Source of the DNA: an uncultured Actinomycetes bacterium
GTDB lineage: Bacteria > Actinomycetota > UBA4738 > HRBIN12
NCBI GenBank assembly: GCA_963734685.1
Contig: CAVTIC010000001.1
Location: 270,417-334,416, forward strand
Direction: 5' to 3'
DNA length: 64,000 nt
How positions within the stretch are numbered: the first letter of the stretch is position 1; every line of letters begins with the position of its first letter. Below the pieces are notes generated by a model. The model was not told the DNA's origin, did not search any database, and saw only the letters and a list, made by a program, of their open reading frames with translations. The translations under genes were made by a program, and so were the position numbers. Positions 30,681-39,544 of the stretch are shown here, piece by piece.

Positions 30681-32270
30681 TCACTCCTCGGGCGCCCGCG
30701 GATGGAGCAGCCCGAACGTGTAGCCGTCGACGAGCGCTTCCCACGACGCCTCGATGATGTTCTCACTCACCCCCACCGTGGTCCACTCGCGCTCGCCGTT
30801 CGACAGGTCGATCAGCACCCTCACGACGGCGCCGGTGCCGTGGGTGCCGCTGAGCACACGCACCCGGAAGTCCTCGAGCTCCATCTGGTCGAGTGCTGGG
30901 TAGTCGTTCGCGAGCGCCTTGCGCAACGCGGTGTCGAGCGCGCCCACGGGACCCTGGCCTTCGGCCGACTCGATGTGACGCGAGCCCTGCGTGCGAACCT
31001 TCACCGTGGCCTCGGCGAGCGGCGGCTCGTCGTCGCCGACCCGTTCCTCGACGTGCACGCGGTAGCTCTCGATCTCGAAGAACGGCTGGGACCAGCCTCC
31101 GGCGCGACGCATCAGCATCTCGAGCGAGGCCTCGGCCACATCGAACGCGTAGCCGAGCGACTCGCGTTGCTTGATCTGCTCGACCACCGCCGGGATCGAC
31201 GCATCGTCCAGATCGAGGCCGAGCTCCTCGGCCTTCATGCGGATCGTGGCGCTGCCGCCGTAGTCCGATGCCACCACGCCTCGGCGGTTCCCGACCGTCT
31301 CGGGAGGCACGTGCTCGTAGGCGCGAGAGACCCGCGCGACGCCGCTCGTGTGCAATCCAGCCTTGTGCGTGAACGCGTACCGCCCCGTGTACGGCTGGCG
31401 CGAGTCGGGCGCCAGGTTCGCGATCTCCGCCACGTAGTGGGCGAGCTCGGTGAGGTGCTCGACGGCCCCTTCGGGCAACGCGTCGGTCGCCCCCATCTTC
31501 AGCACGAGGTCCGCCGTGAGCGGGATCAGGTCGGCGTTGCCGGTGCGCTCGCCGTAACCGTTGATCGTCCCCTGCACCTGGAGCACACCGGCGTCGACCG
31601 CCACGAGCGAGTTCGCGACCGCGCATCCGGCATCGTTGTGCACGTGGATGCCGAGCGGCACGCTCGCCTGCGCCTTCACCTCGCCGACGACCCGCCCGAT
31701 GTCGAAGGGCAGCATGCCGCCGTTCGTGTCGCAGAGCACGAGGCGCTCGGCGCCGGCTTCCTCGGCCGCAGCGAGCACGGCCATCGCGAACGCCCGGTCG
31801 GACCGGTAGCCGTCGAAGAAGTGCTCGGCGTCGAAGAACACCCGGCGCCCCTGGGTGCGCAGGAACTCGACCGAGTCGCGCACCATCGCGACCCCTTCCT
31901 CCAGGTCGGTGCGCAGGGCCGCCGTGATGTGCAGGTCCCAGGACTTCCCGACGAGGCACACGACCTCGGTACCGGCATCGAGCAGGTCACGCAGCACCTG
32001 GGACCCGTCGGCGCGCTCCCCCGCACGCCGGGTCATGCCGAACGCCGTGAGCGTGCTGGTCTTCAGTGTCTCCTCCGTCGCGAGCCGGAAGAACTCGGTG
32101 TCGCGAGGGTTCGCGCCCGGCCAGCCACCTTCCACGTACGGGAAGCCGATCTGGTCGAGCTTGTGCAGGATGCGGAGCCGGTCCTCGACCGTGTACGAGA
32201 GGTCGGCCTGCTGCGCGCCGTCACGCAGGGTCGTGTCGTACAGCTCGACGACGGGGGCAGGCTCGTTCAT
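30681..32270 (-). CDS. cimA: (R)-citramalate synthase (LeuA-family, CimA type)
   Basis: …YDTTLRDGAQ…VEGGWPGANPRD… signature of the CimA clade, the HxH metal site (IHVHND), and a LeuA-dimer C-terminal domain. GGAGGG RBS. ATGA overlap with the leuB stop. Confidence 0.8.
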   Translation of the reverse strand: MNEPAPVVELYDTTLRDGAQQADLSYTVEDRLRILHKLDQIGFPYVEGGWPGANPRDTEFFRLATEETLKTSTLTAFGMTRRAGERADGSQVLRDLLDAGTEVVCLVGKSWDLHITAALRTDLEEGVAMVRDSVEFLRTQGRRVFFDAEHFFDGYRSDRAFAMAVLAAAEEAGAERLVLCDTNGGMLPFDIGRVVGEVKAQASVPLGIHVHNDAGCAVANSLVAVDAGVLQVQGTINGYGERTGNADLIPLTADLVLKMGATDALPEGAVEHLTELAHYVAEIANLAPDSRQPYTGRYAFTHKAGLHTSGVARVSRAYEHVPPETVGNRRGVVASDYGGSATIRMKAEELGLDLDDASIPAVVEQIKQRESLGYAFDVAEASLEMLMRRAGGWSQPFFEIESYRVHVEERVGDDEPPLAEATVKVRTQGSRHIESAEGQGPVGALDTALRKALANDYPALDQMELEDFRVRVLSGTHGTGAVVRVLIDLSNGEREWTTVGVSENIIEASWEALVDGYTFGLLHPRAPEE

Positions 32271-33325: not shown

Positions 33326-33426
33326 GCCGCTCGCGCCTCCTCGGCCCGCTCGACCCCGAACCGCGACCGGACATACACCCGCGGCCGATGACCGCCGAGG
33401 ATCGGCCGGTCGGAGGGGAGGACGCG

Positions 33427-33696
33427 ATGGCGCGGCTGATGGTTCGACACTCGGTCTCCGATTACTCCGCGTGGCGCAAGGTCTACGACGACTTCGACGA
33501 CACCCGCGGCCAGATGGGGGTGACCGCCCAGGCCGTGTTCCGGTCGGTGGACGATCCCACCGATCTGACCGTGACCCACGACTTCGCGACGACGGAGCAG
33601 GCCAAGGCGTTCGCTTCCTCCGCCGAACTGCGCGCCGCGATGCAGCAGGCCGGGGTCGTGGGCGAGCCGGAGATCTGGTTCGTCGACGAAGCCTGA
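33427..33696 (+). CDS. small hypothetical protein (89 aa)
   Basis: The ATG at 33427 has a GGGAGG RBS. Protein-like composition. It is inserted between leuB and leuA on the opposite strand. Confidence 0.4.
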   Translation: MARLMVRHSVSDYSAWRKVYDDFDDTRGQMGVTAQAVFRSVDDPTDLTVTHDFATTEQAKAFASSAELRAAMQQAGVVGEPEIWFVDEA

Positions 33697-33707: not shown

Positions 33708-35297
33708 TCACGGGGTCTCCTCGTTCGACGCGCTCTGTGACGACATGTGCAAGGCCCGGTTGACCGCGGCGAGATAGGCGCGCGCGCTCGCCTCGACGAC
33801 GTCGGTGGCGACGCCACGGCCGGTCACCCGGCGCCCGTCGACGTCGATCTGCACGACGACGTCACCGAGCGCGTCGGTGCCGCCGGTCACGCTCGAGACG
33901 TGGAAGTTCACGAGTCGACCCTCGACGCCGGCGGCCCGTTGGATCGCACCCATCGCGGCGTCGATCAGGCCGTCGCCCATCGCGGATTCCTCGATCACCT
34001 CCTCGCCACGGCGCAGACGCACGGTGGCCCGGGGTTGCAGATGCGTGCCGCCGCCCATCTGCAGTGACTCCATCACGAGCACGTCCTCGTCGGTCGCGCC
34101 GAGCTCCTCGGCGACGATCGCCGCGAGGTCCTGATCGGTGATCTGCACCTTGCGATCGGCGAGATCCTTGAACCGGCCGAATGCTCGGTTCAGGTGATCG
34201 TCGTCGAGCGAGATGCCGATCTTGTCGAGGGCGTCGACGAACGCGTGCCGGCCGGAGTGCTTGCCCAGCACGAGCGCGTTGCCCTCGAGCCCGATCTCGA
34301 CCGGATCCATGATCTCGTAGGTCGCGCGGTTGCTCAGTACGCCGTGCTGATGGATGCCGCTCTCGTGCGCGAACGCGCTCGAGCCCACGACCGCCTTGTT
34401 CGGCTGCACGTTGTACCCGGTCGTCATCGCGACGAGACGAGAGGTGCGGACGATCTCCTTGATGTTCAGGTCGTGCGAGCGTCCGAGTGCCTGACCGCGC
34501 GTGCGGATGATCATCGCGATCTCCTCCAACGAGCAGTTGCCGGCGCGCTCTCCGATGCCGTTGACCGCGACCTCGACCTGCCCGGCGCCGTTCTCGATGC
34601 CTGCGAGCGAGTTCGCGACCGCAAGCCCGAGGTCGTTGTGGCAGTGGGTCGAGATCACGATCTCGTCGGGCGTCTGGTCACGCACGATACGGATCAGCTC
34701 GCCGAATTCCGTCGGGGTCGCGTAGCCGACCGTGTCGGGGACGTTGATCGTGGTCGCGCCGCACTCGACCGCGAGCCGGTAACACTCCAGCAGGAACTCG
34801 AGCGGCGTGCGCGTGGCGTCCTGCGCCGAAAACTCCACGTCATCGGTGTAGCTCTTCGCGAGCGAGACGTTCTCGCGGATCGCGTCGAGCACCTGCTGGA
34901 GGCTCATCTTCAGCATCGATTCGCGCTGCACGTCGCTCGTGGAGATGAACGTGTGGATGCGCCAGCGGTCGGCGCCCTTGAGCGCCTCGGCCGCGCGCTC
35001 GATGTCGCCGGTCGCGGTGCGCGCGAGCGCTGCGATCACCGGTCCCTTCACCGTCGAGGCGATCTCGCTGACCGCGTCGAACTCGCCGGGAGACGAGATC
35101 GGGAAGCCCGCCTCGAGGATGTCGACGTTCAGACGGGCGAGCTGCTCGGCGATCTCGACCTTCTCGGCCTTCGTCAACGCGATGCCGGGGGCTTGCTCCC
35201 CGTCGCGAAGGGTCGTGTCGAAGATGCGGACCCGGTTCCCGGTGGGACCGGCGACCGCGCCAGGTACGTCGGATACGTTGCCGTTGCTATCGCTCAT
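33708..35297 (-). CDS. leuA: 2-isopropylmalate synthase (short bacterial type)
   Basis: …[14 protein letters not shown]…, [14 protein letters not shown], …[13 protein letters not shown]…, and a LeuA-dimer C-terminus. GGAAGGTG RBS. The ATG overlaps the ilvC stop (ATGA). Confidence 0.85.
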
Positions 35298-36308
35298 GCG
35301 GGTGGCACCTTCCGTTCGCTCTCCAGCCAGGGCATCATCTGGCGCAGCTGCCGTCCCACCTGTTCGAGCTGGGACGTCTGCGCCTGCTGGCGAAGTCGGA
35401 AGAACTCCTCGAAGCCACCGTCGGCCTCGGCGATCCACCTCTTCGCGAACGTGCCGTCCTGGATCTCGGCGAGCACCTGGCGCATCCGGTCGCGCGTGTG
35501 ATCGTCGATCACCCGTGGGCCGCTGCTGGTAGTCGCCCCACTCGGCCGTGTCGCTCACCGAGTACCGCATCCACGAGAGCCCACCCTCGTAGATCAGGTC
35601 GATGATCAGCTTCAGCTCGTGCAGGCACTCGAAGTACGCGATCTCGGGCTGGTAGCCCGCTTCGACCAGCGTCTCGAAGCCGTTGCGGATGAGCTCGCTG
35701 ATGCCGCCGCAGAGCACCGTCTGCTCGCCGAACAGATCGGTCTCGGTCTCTTCCTTGAACGTGGTCTCGATGATGCCGGGCTTCGCGCACCCGATCGCCG
35801 CACCGTAGGCGAGCGCGCGGGCCTTCGCCTTGCCGGTCGCATCCTGGTGCACAGCCACGAGGCCGGGGGTGCCGTTCCCCTCCACGTACGTGCGGCGCAC
35901 GAGGTGGCCGGGACCCTTGGGTGCGATCATCGTCACGTCGACACCGGCGGGCGGGATCACCGTGCCGAAGTGGATCGAGAACCCGTGGGCGAACATCAAC
36001 ATGTCGCCGTCCTTCAGGTTCGGCGCGATGTCACTCGCGTACGCGGCACCGTGGGCGGTGTCGGGGAGCAGGCACATCACGACGTCGGCCTCGGCGACGG
36101 CCCCGTCGGTGTCGAGCACGCGGAGCCCGGCGTCCTCGGCCTGCTTGCGGCTGGGCGAGCCCGGGCGGAGCCCGACCCGCACGTCGAGGCCCGAGTCCTG
36201 CATGTTCTGGGCGTGCGCGTGCCCCTGCGACCCGAACCCGAGCACCGCGAGCTTCTGATCGGCGAGCACGCCGGGGTCGGTGTCCTTCTCGTAGTAGATC
36301 GTCGCCAT
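35294..36308 (-). CDS. ilvC: ketol-acid reductoisomerase, interrupted by a 1-nt frameshift near 35515
   Basis: N-terminal 260 aa (MATIYYEKD…[13 protein letters not shown]…) is in one frame. The C-terminus (…[26 protein letters not shown]…MMPWL) is in the frame of ORF 35294..35512. The junction is …taccagCagcggccc… (one extra nt). Confidence 0.8.
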
Positions 36309-36365: not shown

Positions 36366-36896
36366 CTAGCCGGCCTTCGCCGACTTCAACACGCGTTCCC
36401 TGATGCCGCGCTCGCCCCGCGCGAGCGCGATGCGCCCGGTTCGCGAGAGCTCCACGATGCCGAACTCGCTCAGCAGCTCGCGGAGCGCCTCGAGCTTCTC
36501 GGGGCCGCCGCTCGCCTCCACGGTGAGCGTCGACGCGGTGACGTCGACGATGCTCACGCGGAAGACGTCGGCCAGCTCCATGATGCGGGCGCGGGCATCG
36601 CCCTCTGCCCGCACCTTCACGAGCATCAGCTCGCGCTCGACGGCCGTGCCCGGATCGTGCTCGAGGATCTTGATCACGTTGATCAGCTTGTTGAGCTGCT
36701 TCGTGACCTGCTCGAGCGGGCTCTCGTCGACGTTGACGACGATCGTCATGCGCGAGATGCCCGGCGCCTCGGTCGCACCGACCGCGAGCGAGTCGATGTT
36801 GTAGCCACGGGCCGCGAAGAGGCCCGCCACCCGGGTGAGCACACCCGGGCGGTCCTCCACGAGCACCGAGATCGTGTGCAGCGTCGCGCCGTTCAT
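36366..36896 (-). CDS. ilvN: acetolactate synthase small (regulatory) subunit
   Basis: ACT domain ([43 protein letters not shown]…). The ATG overlaps the ilvB stop. Confidence 0.85.
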   Translation of the reverse strand: MNGATLHTISVLVEDRPGVLTRVAGLFAARGYNIDSLAVGATEAPGISRMTIVVNVDESPLEQVTKQLNKLINVIKILEHDPGTAVERELMLVKVRAEGDARARIMELADVFRVSIVDVTASTLTVEASGGPEKLEALRELLSEFGIVELSRTGRIALARGERGIRERVLKSAKAG

Positions 36897-38649
36897 GCGA
36901 TCGGAGCCTCCCCCGGGTCGGTCGTCGGCTGGATGCTCTCGGGCCCGACGATGATGTCGTCGTTCGAGGCGCCCGACGGCACCATCGGGAACACCATCTC
37001 GGCCGGGTCGATCCGGAAGTCGATCACGACCGAACGATCGGTGACCGAGTACGCCTTCTCGATCGCCGTGTCGACCTCGTCGGGCGACTCCACCCTGAGG
37101 CCGACGGCCCCGTACGCCTCGGCGAGCTTGACGTAGTCGGGCACGTTCGGGTCGAGCCAGACGCCAGAGTAACGCTCGTCGAAGAACAGCTCCTGCCACT
37201 GCCGCACCATGCCGAGGTACCCGTTGTTCAGGATCGCGGTCACGAACGGGATCTTCTCGGTGGCGCTCGTCGCGAGTTCCTGGGCCGTCATCTGGAAGCA
37301 ACCATCGCCGTCGATCGCGACCACGCGCTTGTCGGGCTGGCCGGCTTTGGCACCCATCGCCGCCGGCACCGCGAAACCCATCGTGCCGAGGCCGCCGGAG
37401 TTGATCCACCGGCGCGGGTGCTCGAACCGCCAGAACTGCGAGGCGTACATCTGATGCTGGCCGACGCCGGAGACGCAGATCGTGTCGTCGTCGGCGAGTG
37501 CGCGCAGGCGCTCGACGCAGTGCTGCGGCTTCAACTTCCCGTCGCTCATGTCGTACCGATACGGATACGTCTGCTGCCACTCGCGGAGTTGTCCGAGCCA
37601 TGCGGCCCGATCGGGAGCGCCACCGGCCTCGTCCTGACGCTTGTGCAGCTCGGCGGCGAGCTTGCCGATCACGTCCCGGCAGTCACCCACGATCGGCACG
37701 TCGGCGACGCGGTTCTTACCGATCTCGGCCGGATCGATGTCGACGTGGATCACCCCGGCGTGTGGCGCGAACGCGACGAGCTTGCCGGTGACACGGTCGT
37801 CGAAGCGCGAGCCCAGCGCGACGAGCAGGTCGGCCTTCTGCATCGCGGTGACGGCCGAGTAGTTGCCGTGCATGCCCGGCATGCCGAGGCACAGCTCGTG
37901 CGAGTCCGGGAACGCCCCACGTGCCATCAGCGTCGTGACGACCGGCAGCTGACCGGTCGTGGCGAGGTCGAACAGCTCTTCGTGCGCGTCGGCCTTGATC
38001 ACGCCGCCGCCCACGTAGAGCACCGGCCGTTTGGCGCGCATGATCATCCTCACGGCCTCGACGACCTGTCGCTGGTTGCCCTTCGTGTTCGGCTTGTAGC
38101 CGGGCAACGAGACGTTCTCCGGCCAGCGGTACGTGGTCTCGGCGAGCAGCACGTCCTTGGGCAGGTCGATCAACACGGGGCCGGGGCGGCCGGTCGACGC
38201 GATATGGAACGCCTCGCGCACGGTCGGACGATGTCGGCCGGATCCTTCACGAGGAAGTTGTGCTTGGTGACCGGCATCGTGATCCCCGTGATGTCGGCTT
38301 CCTGGAAGGCGTCGTTGCCGACCACCGGCGTCGGCACCTGGCCGGTGATCGCGACGATCGGCACGGAGTCCATCTTCGCGTCGGCGAGCGGGGTGACGAG
38401 GTTCGTCGCCCCGGGACCGCTCGTGGCCATGCACACGCCGACGCGACCCGTCGCCCACGCGTAGCCCTCGGCGGCGTGCCCTGCGCCCTGTTCGTGCCGG
38501 CACAGGATGTGACGGATGGGCGACCGGTCGACCAGCGGGTCGTAGATCGGCATGCTCGCGCCGCCCGGGATGCCGAAGACGACCTCGACGCCTTCCTGCT
38601 CGAGCGCCGTCAGCAGCGCGTCGGCGCCGGACATCTTGGAGCCGGTCAT
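36893..38649 (-). CDS. ilvB: acetolactate synthase large subunit, interrupted by a 1-nt frameshift near 38215
   Basis: N-terminus ([30 protein letters not shown]…) is in the frame of ORF 38170..39003. The rest (…[25 protein letters not shown]… to the end, ThDP motif GGLGTMGF) is in the frame of 36893..38713. Confidence 0.8.
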
Positions 38650-38975
38650 CGTGCGGCCGCCTGCTCTCTGTCCTCTCGTGCCTCCACCGGACCGGTCTCG
38701 ACGCGGCGGACATGGGCCTGCAGGCGGTGCGCCAGGTTGCGGCAGGCGCGCTCGAACTCCCAGGGCGTCCAGTCGCGTCGGCGCGTCTGGAGCACGTCTT
38801 GCTCTTGCTCCTCGCCGAAGTCGAAGCCCGAGCCCAGGTAGACGACGTCGGACGACAGGTATCGATCGACGACCGCGCGCGTCGAAGGCTCGGCGGACTC
38901 GACGCTCACCTGGCCCGGACCCTCCCAGAGCACGCTGGCGACGACGGTGCCGTCTCGCTCGAACTCGTACCGCAT
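38646..38975 (-). CDS. hypothetical 109-aa protein encoded between the ilv attenuator and ilvB; stop overlaps the ilvB ATG
   Basis: AAGGAGA RBS 5 nt before the ATG at 38975. Non-Arg-rich composition ([24 protein letters not shown]…). TGA/ATG overlap with ilvB. No family recognised. Confidence 0.45.
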
Positions 38976-39039
38976 GGGGTTCTCCTTGTCTCCGGGCGTT
39001 CACCCGGTGTTGGTGTTGCGGTGGCTGGCGGCTGGGTAC

Positions 39040-39063
39040 AAAAAACCCCCGCGTGTGCGGGGG
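39040..39063 (-). terminator. intrinsic terminator of the ilv leader (attenuator)
   Basis: On the minus strand: CCCCCGC-acac-GCGGGGG followed by TTTTTTG. It lies 40 nt downstream of the leader-peptide stop. Confidence 0.65.
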
Positions 39064-39103
39064 CGTCCGGCGCGGTCAGCAGGCCTCCTGGGCCTGGCCG
39101 CGC

Positions 39104-39163
39104 CTAAGGGATAAGTACGAGGTCGTTACGTCGGGTGGGCGTGTCCTCGCTGAACATGGTCAT
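39104..39163 (-). CDS. ilvB leader peptide (19 aa, MTMFSEDTPTRRNDLVLIP)
   Basis: A short ORF ending in Leu-Val-Leu-Ile codons immediately before the stop. It is positioned between a promoter and a terminator upstream of ilvBNC. Confidence 0.5.
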   Translation of the reverse strand: MTMFSEDTPTRRNDLVLIP

Positions 39164-39166
39164 GAC

Positions 39167-39194
39167 AGTGTAGAGATGCCTCCTGTGCTGTCAA
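39167..39194 (-). promoter_or_regulatory. candidate sigma-A-type promoter for a leaderless ilv leader transcript
   Basis: Minus strand: TTGACA – 16 nt – TACACT – gtc – ATG. The start codon lies where the transcription start is expected (leaderless). The local region is AT-richer. Confidence 0.45.
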
Positions 39195-39544
39195 CTTTCG
39201 GTCGAGAATGAGAGAAGTGAGACAGGGCGAGAGGATGCGCACTCGGCCCGACTCGGGCATAGCTTGGACTCCTGTAGGGATCCGGAGCCCGCGGAGCGTT
39301 GTTCCCAGAGATGAATCAACCCCTCCGCGTCGTGGGGGGCACGGCCGAAGGGGCCGAGCTCTCCTCCGAGGAATTCTTCCACCGCGAGAGGGCGGGCTCT
39401 GCGGTGTCCTCTGGCCTGGTGACCCACGACCGGTCAGAGGCGGAGGATCTCACCCGCTCGGCTCCGTCGCGGTCGTACGTCGGGTACGCCGACGGCCGCC
39501 GGAACCATCCGGCGGCCGTCGCGCGATGCTCGGTGAACCCGGGA

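Follow-up and report, generated by a model that had tools for sequence, protein, structure and literature searches.

How might a ribosome on a short leader peptide set transcription of the genes behind it, when the hairpin that it disturbs and the terminator that follows have no nucleotide in common? This question is raised by a leader on the minus strand at positions 39040 to 39194 of a 64,000-nucleotide (nt) stretch of DNA, hereafter the window, which was taken from contig CAVTIC010000001.1 (positions 270,417 to 334,416; assembly GCA_963734685.1) of an uncultured Actinomycetes bacterium. The leader precedes orf109, a gene of unknown function, and a run of genes for the synthesis of branched-chain amino acids (BCAA). 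With a probability of about 0.8, we read the leader as a BCAA-sensing, ribosome-mediated transcription attenuator of an orf109-ilvBNC-leuA-leuB operon, of the actinobacterial ilvB type. An earlier, sequence-only reading of the locus had proposed a ribosome-stalling attenuator in front of the ilv and leu genes. That proposal is well supported by loci found through IlvB homology, by at least 120 metagenome contigs and by the precedent of ilvB1 in Mycobacterium tuberculosis (PMC13236596). The same reading had described the element as complete, with every part readable, and had overlooked the hairpin that is predicted to respond to the ribosome.

Anatomy and conservation of the leader

A first set of loci was gathered by IlvB homology alone, and metagenome contigs were scanned for the pattern CCTCGTACTTAT-N4-TAGGCGCG, which matched at least 120 of them. 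Contigs and genome loci together comprised 116 distinct leaders among the matches listed, and 113 of these were used for folding and for the counts given below. Apart from one chance match, all members of the 116-leader set have the full layout: a promoter, a short open reading frame (ORF) ending in Leu-Val-Leu-Ile (LVLI), one variable residue (X) and a stop codon, a hairpin designated P1, a spacer of 4-5 nt, a terminator designated T, and a U-tract. The same arrangement was found in all 13 loci of the window's clade that were retrieved via IlvB alone (L001, L003-L012, L058 and L060). There, the 12-mer CCTCGTACTTAT is invariant (13/13) and is followed by one variable codon, TAG, and a hairpin that starts from the G of TAG. 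A BCAA-rich short ORF at this position, which the sequence-only reading had suggested seeking in homologous genomes, is present in every one of the 13.

P1 (GGCGCGGCCAGGCC-CAGGA-GGCCTGCTGACCGCGCC; 36 nt; 39069 to 39104, minus strand) is the presumed antiterminator, and its first base is the G of the TAG stop codon. It occupies what had been described as a gap of 40 nt between the leader peptide and the terminator (39104-39069). A 4-nt spacer, GGAC (39065 to 39068, minus strand), separates P1 from the terminator; its length is 4-5 nt in 104 of the 113 relatives. The intrinsic terminator T (GCCCCCGC-ACAC-GCGGGGGT plus T6; 39040 to 39064, minus strand) is an 8-bp GC-rich hairpin with its stem-loop at 39064-39045 and T6 at 39045-39040. 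The GC-rich hairpin and its T6 had already been recognized from the letters alone, and a consensus/terminator scan independently reported the terminator at the same place.

In per-sequence folding, every leader (113 of 113) formed two hairpins, and no more, in the stretch from the stop codon to the U-tract. P1 measures 33-40 nt in all but one of them, with a mean of -27.5 kcal/mol, and most T hairpins are 17-21 nt long, the mean for T being -14.8 kcal/mol. Because a MAFFT alignment of the 113 leaders misplaced the variable inner stems, RNAalifold applied to it recovered just the lower stem of P1 and some of T, and per-sequence folding was used instead. When native pairing of the arms was compared with permuted pairing, the values were -21.1 versus -19.7 kcal/mol for P1, among which there are 79 distinct inner sequences, and -16.0 versus -13.35 kcal/mol for T, which is represented by 28 distinct covarying stems. 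Both predicted helices, P1 and T, covary across the related sequences. The lower P1 stem, GGCGCG/CGCGCC, is invariant and does not covary, and a bulge on the 3' side of P1 is kept. At gathering thresholds, no Rfam family matched anywhere in the window, be it an amino-acid leader, an ilvB-associated motif or a riboswitch; at permissive thresholds, the region 38900-39300 gave chance-level small RNA matches only (best E = 0.12). The window contains no tRNA genes.

The promoter had been read correctly, with a perfect -35 hexamer TTGACA (39189 to 39194, minus strand), a 16-nt spacer and the -10 hexamer TACACT (39167 to 39172, minus strand), and it is the sole promoter-like site within 6 kb in a consensus scan (mean of 0.2 in shuffles). 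The -35 hexamer has the same position in 80 of 113 related leaders, and TACACT or CACACT is the commonest -10 sequence among them. The start codon requires revision. The first ATG, at 39163 on the minus strand, opens the 19-codon frame MTMFSEDTPTRRNDLVLIP (stop TAG at 39106-39104) and had been placed at the transcription start; it lies only 3 nt past the -10 hexamer, which is too close for +1. In relatives this position holds GTG, TTG, TGG or CCG, and a start at 39163 would merely add a non-conserved Met-Thr. A second in-frame ATG at 39157 (minus strand; context GACC ATG) lies 9 nt past the -10 hexamer both here and in most relatives. As this second ATG is the conserved one, the peptide is most likely MFSEDTPTRRNDLVLIP, with 17 amino acids, encoded by 17 codons followed by TAG (39104 to 39157, minus strand). 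Judged from the promoter, the 5' untranslated region before the ATG at 39157 would be ~0-4 nt, and the transcript is thus probably leaderless or nearly leaderless. Of the leaderless 19-codon ORF proposed earlier, the near-leaderless part probably stands and the codon count does not. A motif resembling a Shine-Dalgarno (SD) sequence precedes the leader ORF in only 2 of 113 relatives. From the start to the U-tract's end, the window leader spans ~120 nt.

In comparison with L081, a 98.8%-identical contig, the window carries an 8-nt insertion, TTCTCTCA, at ~39216 (minus strand), immediately before the -35 hexamer. Within the attenuator, the two differ by single substitutions only, and in the stretch from the terminator to orf109 they differ by three small indels.

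The Leu-Val-Leu-Ile run near the end of the peptide, also noted previously, is encoded by CTC GTA CTT ATC (39110 to 39121, minus strand) and is followed by one variable codon (CCT) and the stop codon. The 12-mer CCTCGTACTTAT occurs once in the 64-kb window against an expectation of 0.05. In the biosynthetic genes of the window (69.5% G+C), GTA accounts for 1.8% of Val codons and CTT for 1.5% of Leu codons, and this rarity fits the conservation of the regulatory codons at the nucleotide level. Peptide length is 16-18 codons in 99 of 113 leaders. The N-terminal part varies freely, whereas the frame, the length and the LVLI-X-stop ending are kept, which is the signature of a translated sensor ORF and not of a functional small protein.

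The genomes closest to the window are metagenome-assembled genomes (MAGs) of uncultured Actinomycetota, and IlvB homology led to the more distant Acidimicrobiia. In most Acidimicrobiia ilvB loci, an upstream short ORF ends in four to six Ile, Leu or Val codons. The plan of two hairpins was found in 44 of 46 parseable loci; 40 of these 44 have a first hairpin that begins at base 2-3 of the stop codon. In 37 of the 46, a single codon separates the BCAA run from the stop codon. The sequence of P1 differs between the window clade and the Acidimicrobiia, and its position on the stop codon is kept; the spacer in other clades is 0-6 nt. Two mycobacterial loci were also read, L205 (Mycolicibacterium arabiense) and L206. 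The upstream ORF (uORF) of L205 is MQSFGILVVIGSRVGA, and that of L206 is shorter. Both have the CUC GUA codons of the window and an ORF that extends into the 5' arm of P1. In both, P1 abuts the terminator with a spacer of 0 nt, and the two hairpins coexist in the minimum-free-energy fold. Between the leader of the window clade and that of the mycobacteria, the shared features are the CUC GUA core and the architecture; the hairpin sequences differ. This core is kept at the nucleotide level in mycobacteria, Acidimicrobiia and the window clade (the window, L013-L080, L205 and L206), a conservation that is explained by rare-codon use. In all three lineages examined, the predicted P1 and T share no bases.

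Two further features of the terminator were observed. Directly behind its U-tract lies a C-rich patch (GUACCC / CUACCCC; 39034-39039, minus strand) that is conserved in relatives, and the Acidimicrobiia have another form of it, such as CGUCCGG. In read-through RNA, the patch might base-pair with the G-rich T 3' arm; alternatively, it might act on termination through the downstream DNA. The 5' arm of the terminator also often has the same CCUCG(UAC) as the regulatory codons, for example in mycobacteria.

Ribosome position and the search for a competing pairing

To model translation of the leader, the ribosome was represented as a mask that spans -15 to +12 about the A-site codon. With the A site at the first Leu codon or the Val codon, the probability of P1 was 0.96; it fell to 0.78 at the second Leu codon, 0.46 at the Ile codon and 0.11 at the stop codon. 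The probability of T remained 0.96-0.99 in every modelled state. In the model, then, P1 responds to ribosome position, being intact with the ribosome on LVLI and melted with the ribosome on the stop codon, and T does not respond.

This behavior differs from that of the classical three-stem attenuator of the trp, his or leu type, in which a segment that overlaps or follows LVLI would pair with the 5' arm of T upon stalling. In its overall layout, with cognate codons in a leader ORF and a terminator behind them, the window leader fits such a device; the M. tuberculosis study calls its own two hairpins mutually exclusive (PMC13236596); and some minimum-free-energy folds, those of a few relatives, allow a pairing between the early coding region and the T 5' arm. 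The sequence-only reading had proposed looking for mutually exclusive antiterminator and terminator pairings over the LVLI codons. We searched for them by folding masked, truncated transcripts, by analyzing the partners of the T 5' arm, by permuting duplexes of six arm combinations, and by testing extensions of P1. Permutation tests gave no covariation between the early coding region and the 5' arm of T, between the 5' arms of P1 and T, between the LVLI region and the 3' arm of T, or for P1 when extended into its flanking bases, and the 3' arms of P1 and T paired no better with each other than permuted pairs did. In truncated transcripts, the 5' arm of T pairs at most weakly, and its partner is the region behind the stalled ribosome, again no better than permuted; such a pairing of the early coding region would have to bridge that ribosome. 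Moreover, the P1 3' arm and the T 5' arm are both C-rich, T keeps a probability of at least 0.96 whatever the ribosome state, and no tested alternative arm combination or P1 extension covaries. An antiterminator that excludes the terminator through shared bases, the defining feature of classical attenuators, was thus not found in this leader by folding or permutation, and we regard a three-stem mechanism as unlikely here.

A proposed route to antitermination

In the mechanism that we propose, the sigma-70-type promoter would give a leaderless or nearly leaderless RNA, and its 17-codon ORF would be translated at once. Poor charging of Leu, Val or Ile tRNAs would make the ribosome stall at CUC GUA CUU AUC with its front edge short of P1, and P1 would fold. 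When these tRNAs are charged, the ribosome would reach the UAG, which is part of the P1 base, and would melt the lower P1 stem. At the terminator, 4 nt beyond P1, termination would be expected with P1 open and read-through with P1 folded. That stalling takes place and regulates expression is suggested by analogy with M. tuberculosis, in which experiments have shown that the ilvB1NC leader is an attenuator responsive to BCAA (Nat Microbiol 2026, PMC13236596). A terminated leader RNA of ~120 nt and ribosome occupancy of the uORF were reported there, and changing LVVI to AAAA abolished induction (PMC13236596).

How a folded P1 would prevent termination is the less familiar part of the proposal, since we infer that it does so without sharing bases with T. 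Because T is predicted to fold whatever the ribosome position and only P1 responds, relief of termination is probably steric or kinetic, through a tug-of-war or through pausing. Structures located 0-4 nt upstream of a terminator suppress termination experimentally, and the cause given is competition for the exit channel of RNA polymerase, termed a 'tug-of-war' (bioRxiv 10.64898/2026.06.17.733018). The most likely route in the window leader would be of this kind, with P1 occupying the RNA exit channel directly upstream of T and a terminating ribosome unfolding P1, the upstream structure. We extend this only tentatively, and with some doubt, to the ilvB attenuators of Actinomycetota as a group (window clade, Acidimicrobiia and mycobacteria), which may work by overlap-free steric antitermination in which the ribosome acts as a 'ligand' that removes P1.

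P1 may have a second role. In hairpin-stabilised pauses, the hairpin lies 11-13 nt from the RNA 3' end, and in 140 of 157 sequences the 3' end of P1 lies the same 11-13 nt from the T loop. A G-10/Y-1/G+1 pattern is found 10-11 nt past P1 in 78 of 113 leaders, compared with 24% in shuffles; as the leaders are related sequences, this pattern is weak evidence and suggestive only. Taken with the distance, it raises the possibility that P1 also acts as a pause hairpin and would hold the polymerase at the T loop until the ribosome arrives.

Several points weigh against our interpretation of the leader. The predicted P1 and T are not mutually exclusive, and no alternative pairing covaries. In the tug-of-war study, a plain upstream hairpin clearly affected only the weakest terminator, and spacers longer than ~4 nt favoured termination, which puts the 4-5 nt found here at the long end of the working range (bioRxiv 10.64898/2026.06.17.733018). 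By the design rule of that study, stronger terminators go together with shorter spacers, and spacer length does correlate with terminator stability in the leaders (raw rho 0.45; mean T of -19.6 kcal/mol at a spacer of 0 and -12.4 kcal/mol at a spacer of 6). After control for stem length, however, the correlation is gone, and the stability of the top six base pairs of T is uncorrelated with the spacer. The raw correlation arises because linker bases are traded for stem base pairs at a constant distance from P1 to the T loop, and it gives no independent support for a tug-of-war. The transcription start was placed from promoter geometry alone, and the organism is known only from uncultured MAGs. 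Lastly, mutations of the leader codons of Streptomyces coelicolor ilvB have been reported to be without effect (cited in PMC1262725).

Other explanations were weighed as well. P1 might instead be the binding site of a trans-acting factor, either a protein, possibly the orf109 product, or a small ligand, that sets termination, with the short ORF being secondary. Sequence invariance of the lower P1 stem, GGCGCG/CGCGCC, and retention of the bulge on its 3' side would suit a binding site, and a conserved protein of unknown function is encoded directly behind the leader. However, orf109 is absent from L011, L058 and the Acidimicrobiia and mycobacterial loci, all of which retain P1, T and the attenuator, so the attenuator does not require orf109. 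Among clades, moreover, it is the sequence of P1 that changes and its position on the stop codon that stays, no Rfam riboswitch family matches, and the BCAA codon run and its fixed distance to P1 would be left unexplained. We judge this explanation to be very unlikely.

A translational attenuator of the mycobacterial polycysteine type is slightly less probable again. In such a device, free regulatory codons would pair with a downstream SD sequence, and the hairpin and U-tract would be incidental. The mechanism exists for leaderless short ORFs in mycobacteria (bioRxiv 10.1101/834739), and the window has UCCCUU in the ORF tail, almost a complement of the orf109 AAGGAG. This match involves the variable X codon, though, and lacks conservation. 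Between T and the start codon that follows, the distance varies from ~20 to >200 nt, the canonical GC-rich hairpin and U-tract are conserved in all clades, and a terminated leader transcript has been observed in M. tuberculosis (PMC13236596). Finally, the absence of any regulation, with a chance short ORF beside two tandem hairpins or a terminator that belongs to the upstream membrane-protein gene, might be entertained for an organism known from sequence alone, but it is effectively refuted by the comparative data: the promoter sits between the upstream gene and the hairpins, and the frame, codon identity and hairpin covariation are kept in >150 loci of three actinobacterial lineages, always before ilvB.

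The operon and comparison with known attenuators

The first gene past the attenuator is orf109 (38646 to 38975, minus strand; 109 amino acids), with an AAGGAG SD sequence at 38987-38982. Its stop codon overlaps the start of ilvB (ATGA; ilvB start at 38649), and it is called as a gene likewise in other assemblies. The earlier assignment of the leader to ilvB-ilvN-ilvC-leuA holds for the operon, and the correction is that orf109, and not ilvB, comes first. All 532 homologues of orf109 are hypothetical proteins, and no Pfam family matches it. An AlphaFold model of moderate confidence (predicted local distance difference test score of 66) has a beta-beta-beta-alpha ... alpha-beta core with a disordered acidic loop, and a structure search with it gave no fold match. 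Directly upstream of the orf109 SD sequence, a small hairpin, CCGGG-TGAACG-CCCGG, occurs at 38992-39007 (minus strand), and a similar CCGGG...CCCGG is found at the same place in L001 and L004.

The remaining genes of the cluster were assigned by Pfam. They comprise ilvB (acetolactate synthase large subunit; 36893 to 38649, minus strand), ilvN (small subunit; 36366 to 36893, minus strand) and, beyond ilvN down to 30681 on the same strand, ilvC, leuA, leuB and a cimA/leuA-like gene. The N-terminal TPP domain of ilvB is in one frame and its middle and C-terminal domains are in another. One G is missing near 38226 relative to L081, in which ilvB is intact and encodes 585 amino acids. In ilvC, the KARI_C domain is cut at 82 of 144 positions, and the ORF is fused with that of the next gene (ilvC/leuA ORF at 33708-36308, minus strand). 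These frameshifts are probably long-read assembly errors; the two genes could alternatively be pseudogenes, which for ilvB would be recent. The cimA/leuA-like gene, with HMGL-like and LeuA_dimer domains of the citramalate or 2-isopropylmalate synthase type (30681-32270, minus strand), lies downstream of leuB, and the cluster thus has two LeuA-family synthases. Between leuA and leuB, an ORF for 102 amino acids on the opposite strand (33388-33696, plus strand) has a weak match to ABM (antibiotic biosynthesis monooxygenase; E = 0.003) that is below the Pfam cut-off.

Leader-peptide control of ilvB is already known in Actinobacteria, and as an annotation the window leader is routine: an ordinary, though conserved, element. 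ilvB leader peptides with terminators were predicted in Actinobacteria, with the mode of regulation called unclear (Seliverstov et al. 2005, PMC1262725). To this we add a large, uniform and uncurated family of RNAs and uORFs that Rfam lacks and that occurs in uncultured Actinomycetota abundant in soil (at least 120 metagenome contigs). We also add a corrected anatomy with respect to the start codon, hairpin P1 and the extra conserved gene, and a clear comparative result for three distant lineages, in which the predicted ribosome-sensitive hairpin and the terminator have no nucleotides in common. If this lack of overlap holds, it bears on how these attenuators work, of which that of M. tuberculosis has been linked to drug vulnerability, and it would provide natural examples of overlap-free antitermination. 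If the steric interpretation is also true, the leaders would be tug-of-war antiterminators that occur in nature and are gated by the ribosome; descriptions of this mechanism have so far been limited to synthetic constructs and some ZTP riboswitches.

Enterobacterial leaders (trp, his, leu, ilvBN and ilvGMEDA) work through overlapping 1:2, 2:3 and 3:4 pairings and SD-dependent initiation. Like them, the window leader has a leader peptide with cognate, often rare, codons and an intrinsic terminator, a layout suited to coupling translation with transcription. Unlike them, it has no segment common to both hairpins, its ORF is probably leaderless, and it matches no Rfam leader. The geometry also fits that of tug-of-war riboswitches, in which a stable structure lies a few nt before the terminator without overlap (Bushhouse, Fu and Lucks, bioRxiv 2026). 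There, termination is relieved when the upstream structure is folded and a ligand stabilises that structure, whereas in the window leader a terminating ribosome would destabilise P1; the tug-of-war study did not treat leader-peptide attenuators (bioRxiv 10.64898/2026.06.17.733018).

The sequence-only reading had likened the leader to the ilv attenuators of Corynebacterium and Streptomyces. Corynebacterium ilvB-II likewise has a 15-17-codon uORF enriched in Ile, Leu and Val and two hairpins, P1 and P2, with P2 as the terminator, and its expression is lower in rich medium (PMC10272879). In Corynebacterium ilvB-II and C. glutamicum ilvBNC, however, the uORF spans most of P1, and a defined antiterminator joins the P1 loop to the P2 3' shoulder (Narunsky et al. 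2023, PMC10272879). Neither of these defining features, a uORF across P1 or a P1-loop/P2-shoulder antiterminator, was found in the window, where the ORF ends as P1 begins and a pairing between the 3' arms of P1 and T is unsupported.

Of the corynebacterial and mycobacterial leaders compared, the nearest is the mycobacterial ilvB1 leader. In the model for M. tuberculosis, a hairpin after the uORF forms on stalling and is masked once the ribosome is at the stop codon (PMC13236596), and the window leader would behave alike, with a stable hairpin spared by the stalled ribosome and masked by the ribosome at the stop. The two share a BCAA-rich short ORF at or near the 5' end of the transcript, four regulatory codons that include the rare GUA, and a terminator directly behind, upstream of ilvB-ilvN-ilvC. 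Their lengths are similar, at ~120 nt from the start to the U-tract's end in the window and +126 in M. tuberculosis, and in L205 and L206, as in the window, P1 and T are without shared bases. The differences are that the mycobacterial ORF continues for 5-6 codons within the P1 5' arm (ILVVI-GSRVGA-stop) with a spacer of 0-1 nt, whereas in the window a single codon follows LVLI, P1 has the stop codon as its base and the spacer measures 4-5 nt. In addition, the window has the extra gene orf109 between the attenuator and ilvB, and there is no detectable sequence homology beyond the CUC GUA core. In its geometry and predicted folds, the window leader has the architecture that defines the mycobacterial ilvB1 attenuator, and it belongs to that type by architecture and not by demonstrable sequence homology. 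Compared with the two mycobacterial loci, its plan is the mycobacterial plan with a shorter ORF tail.

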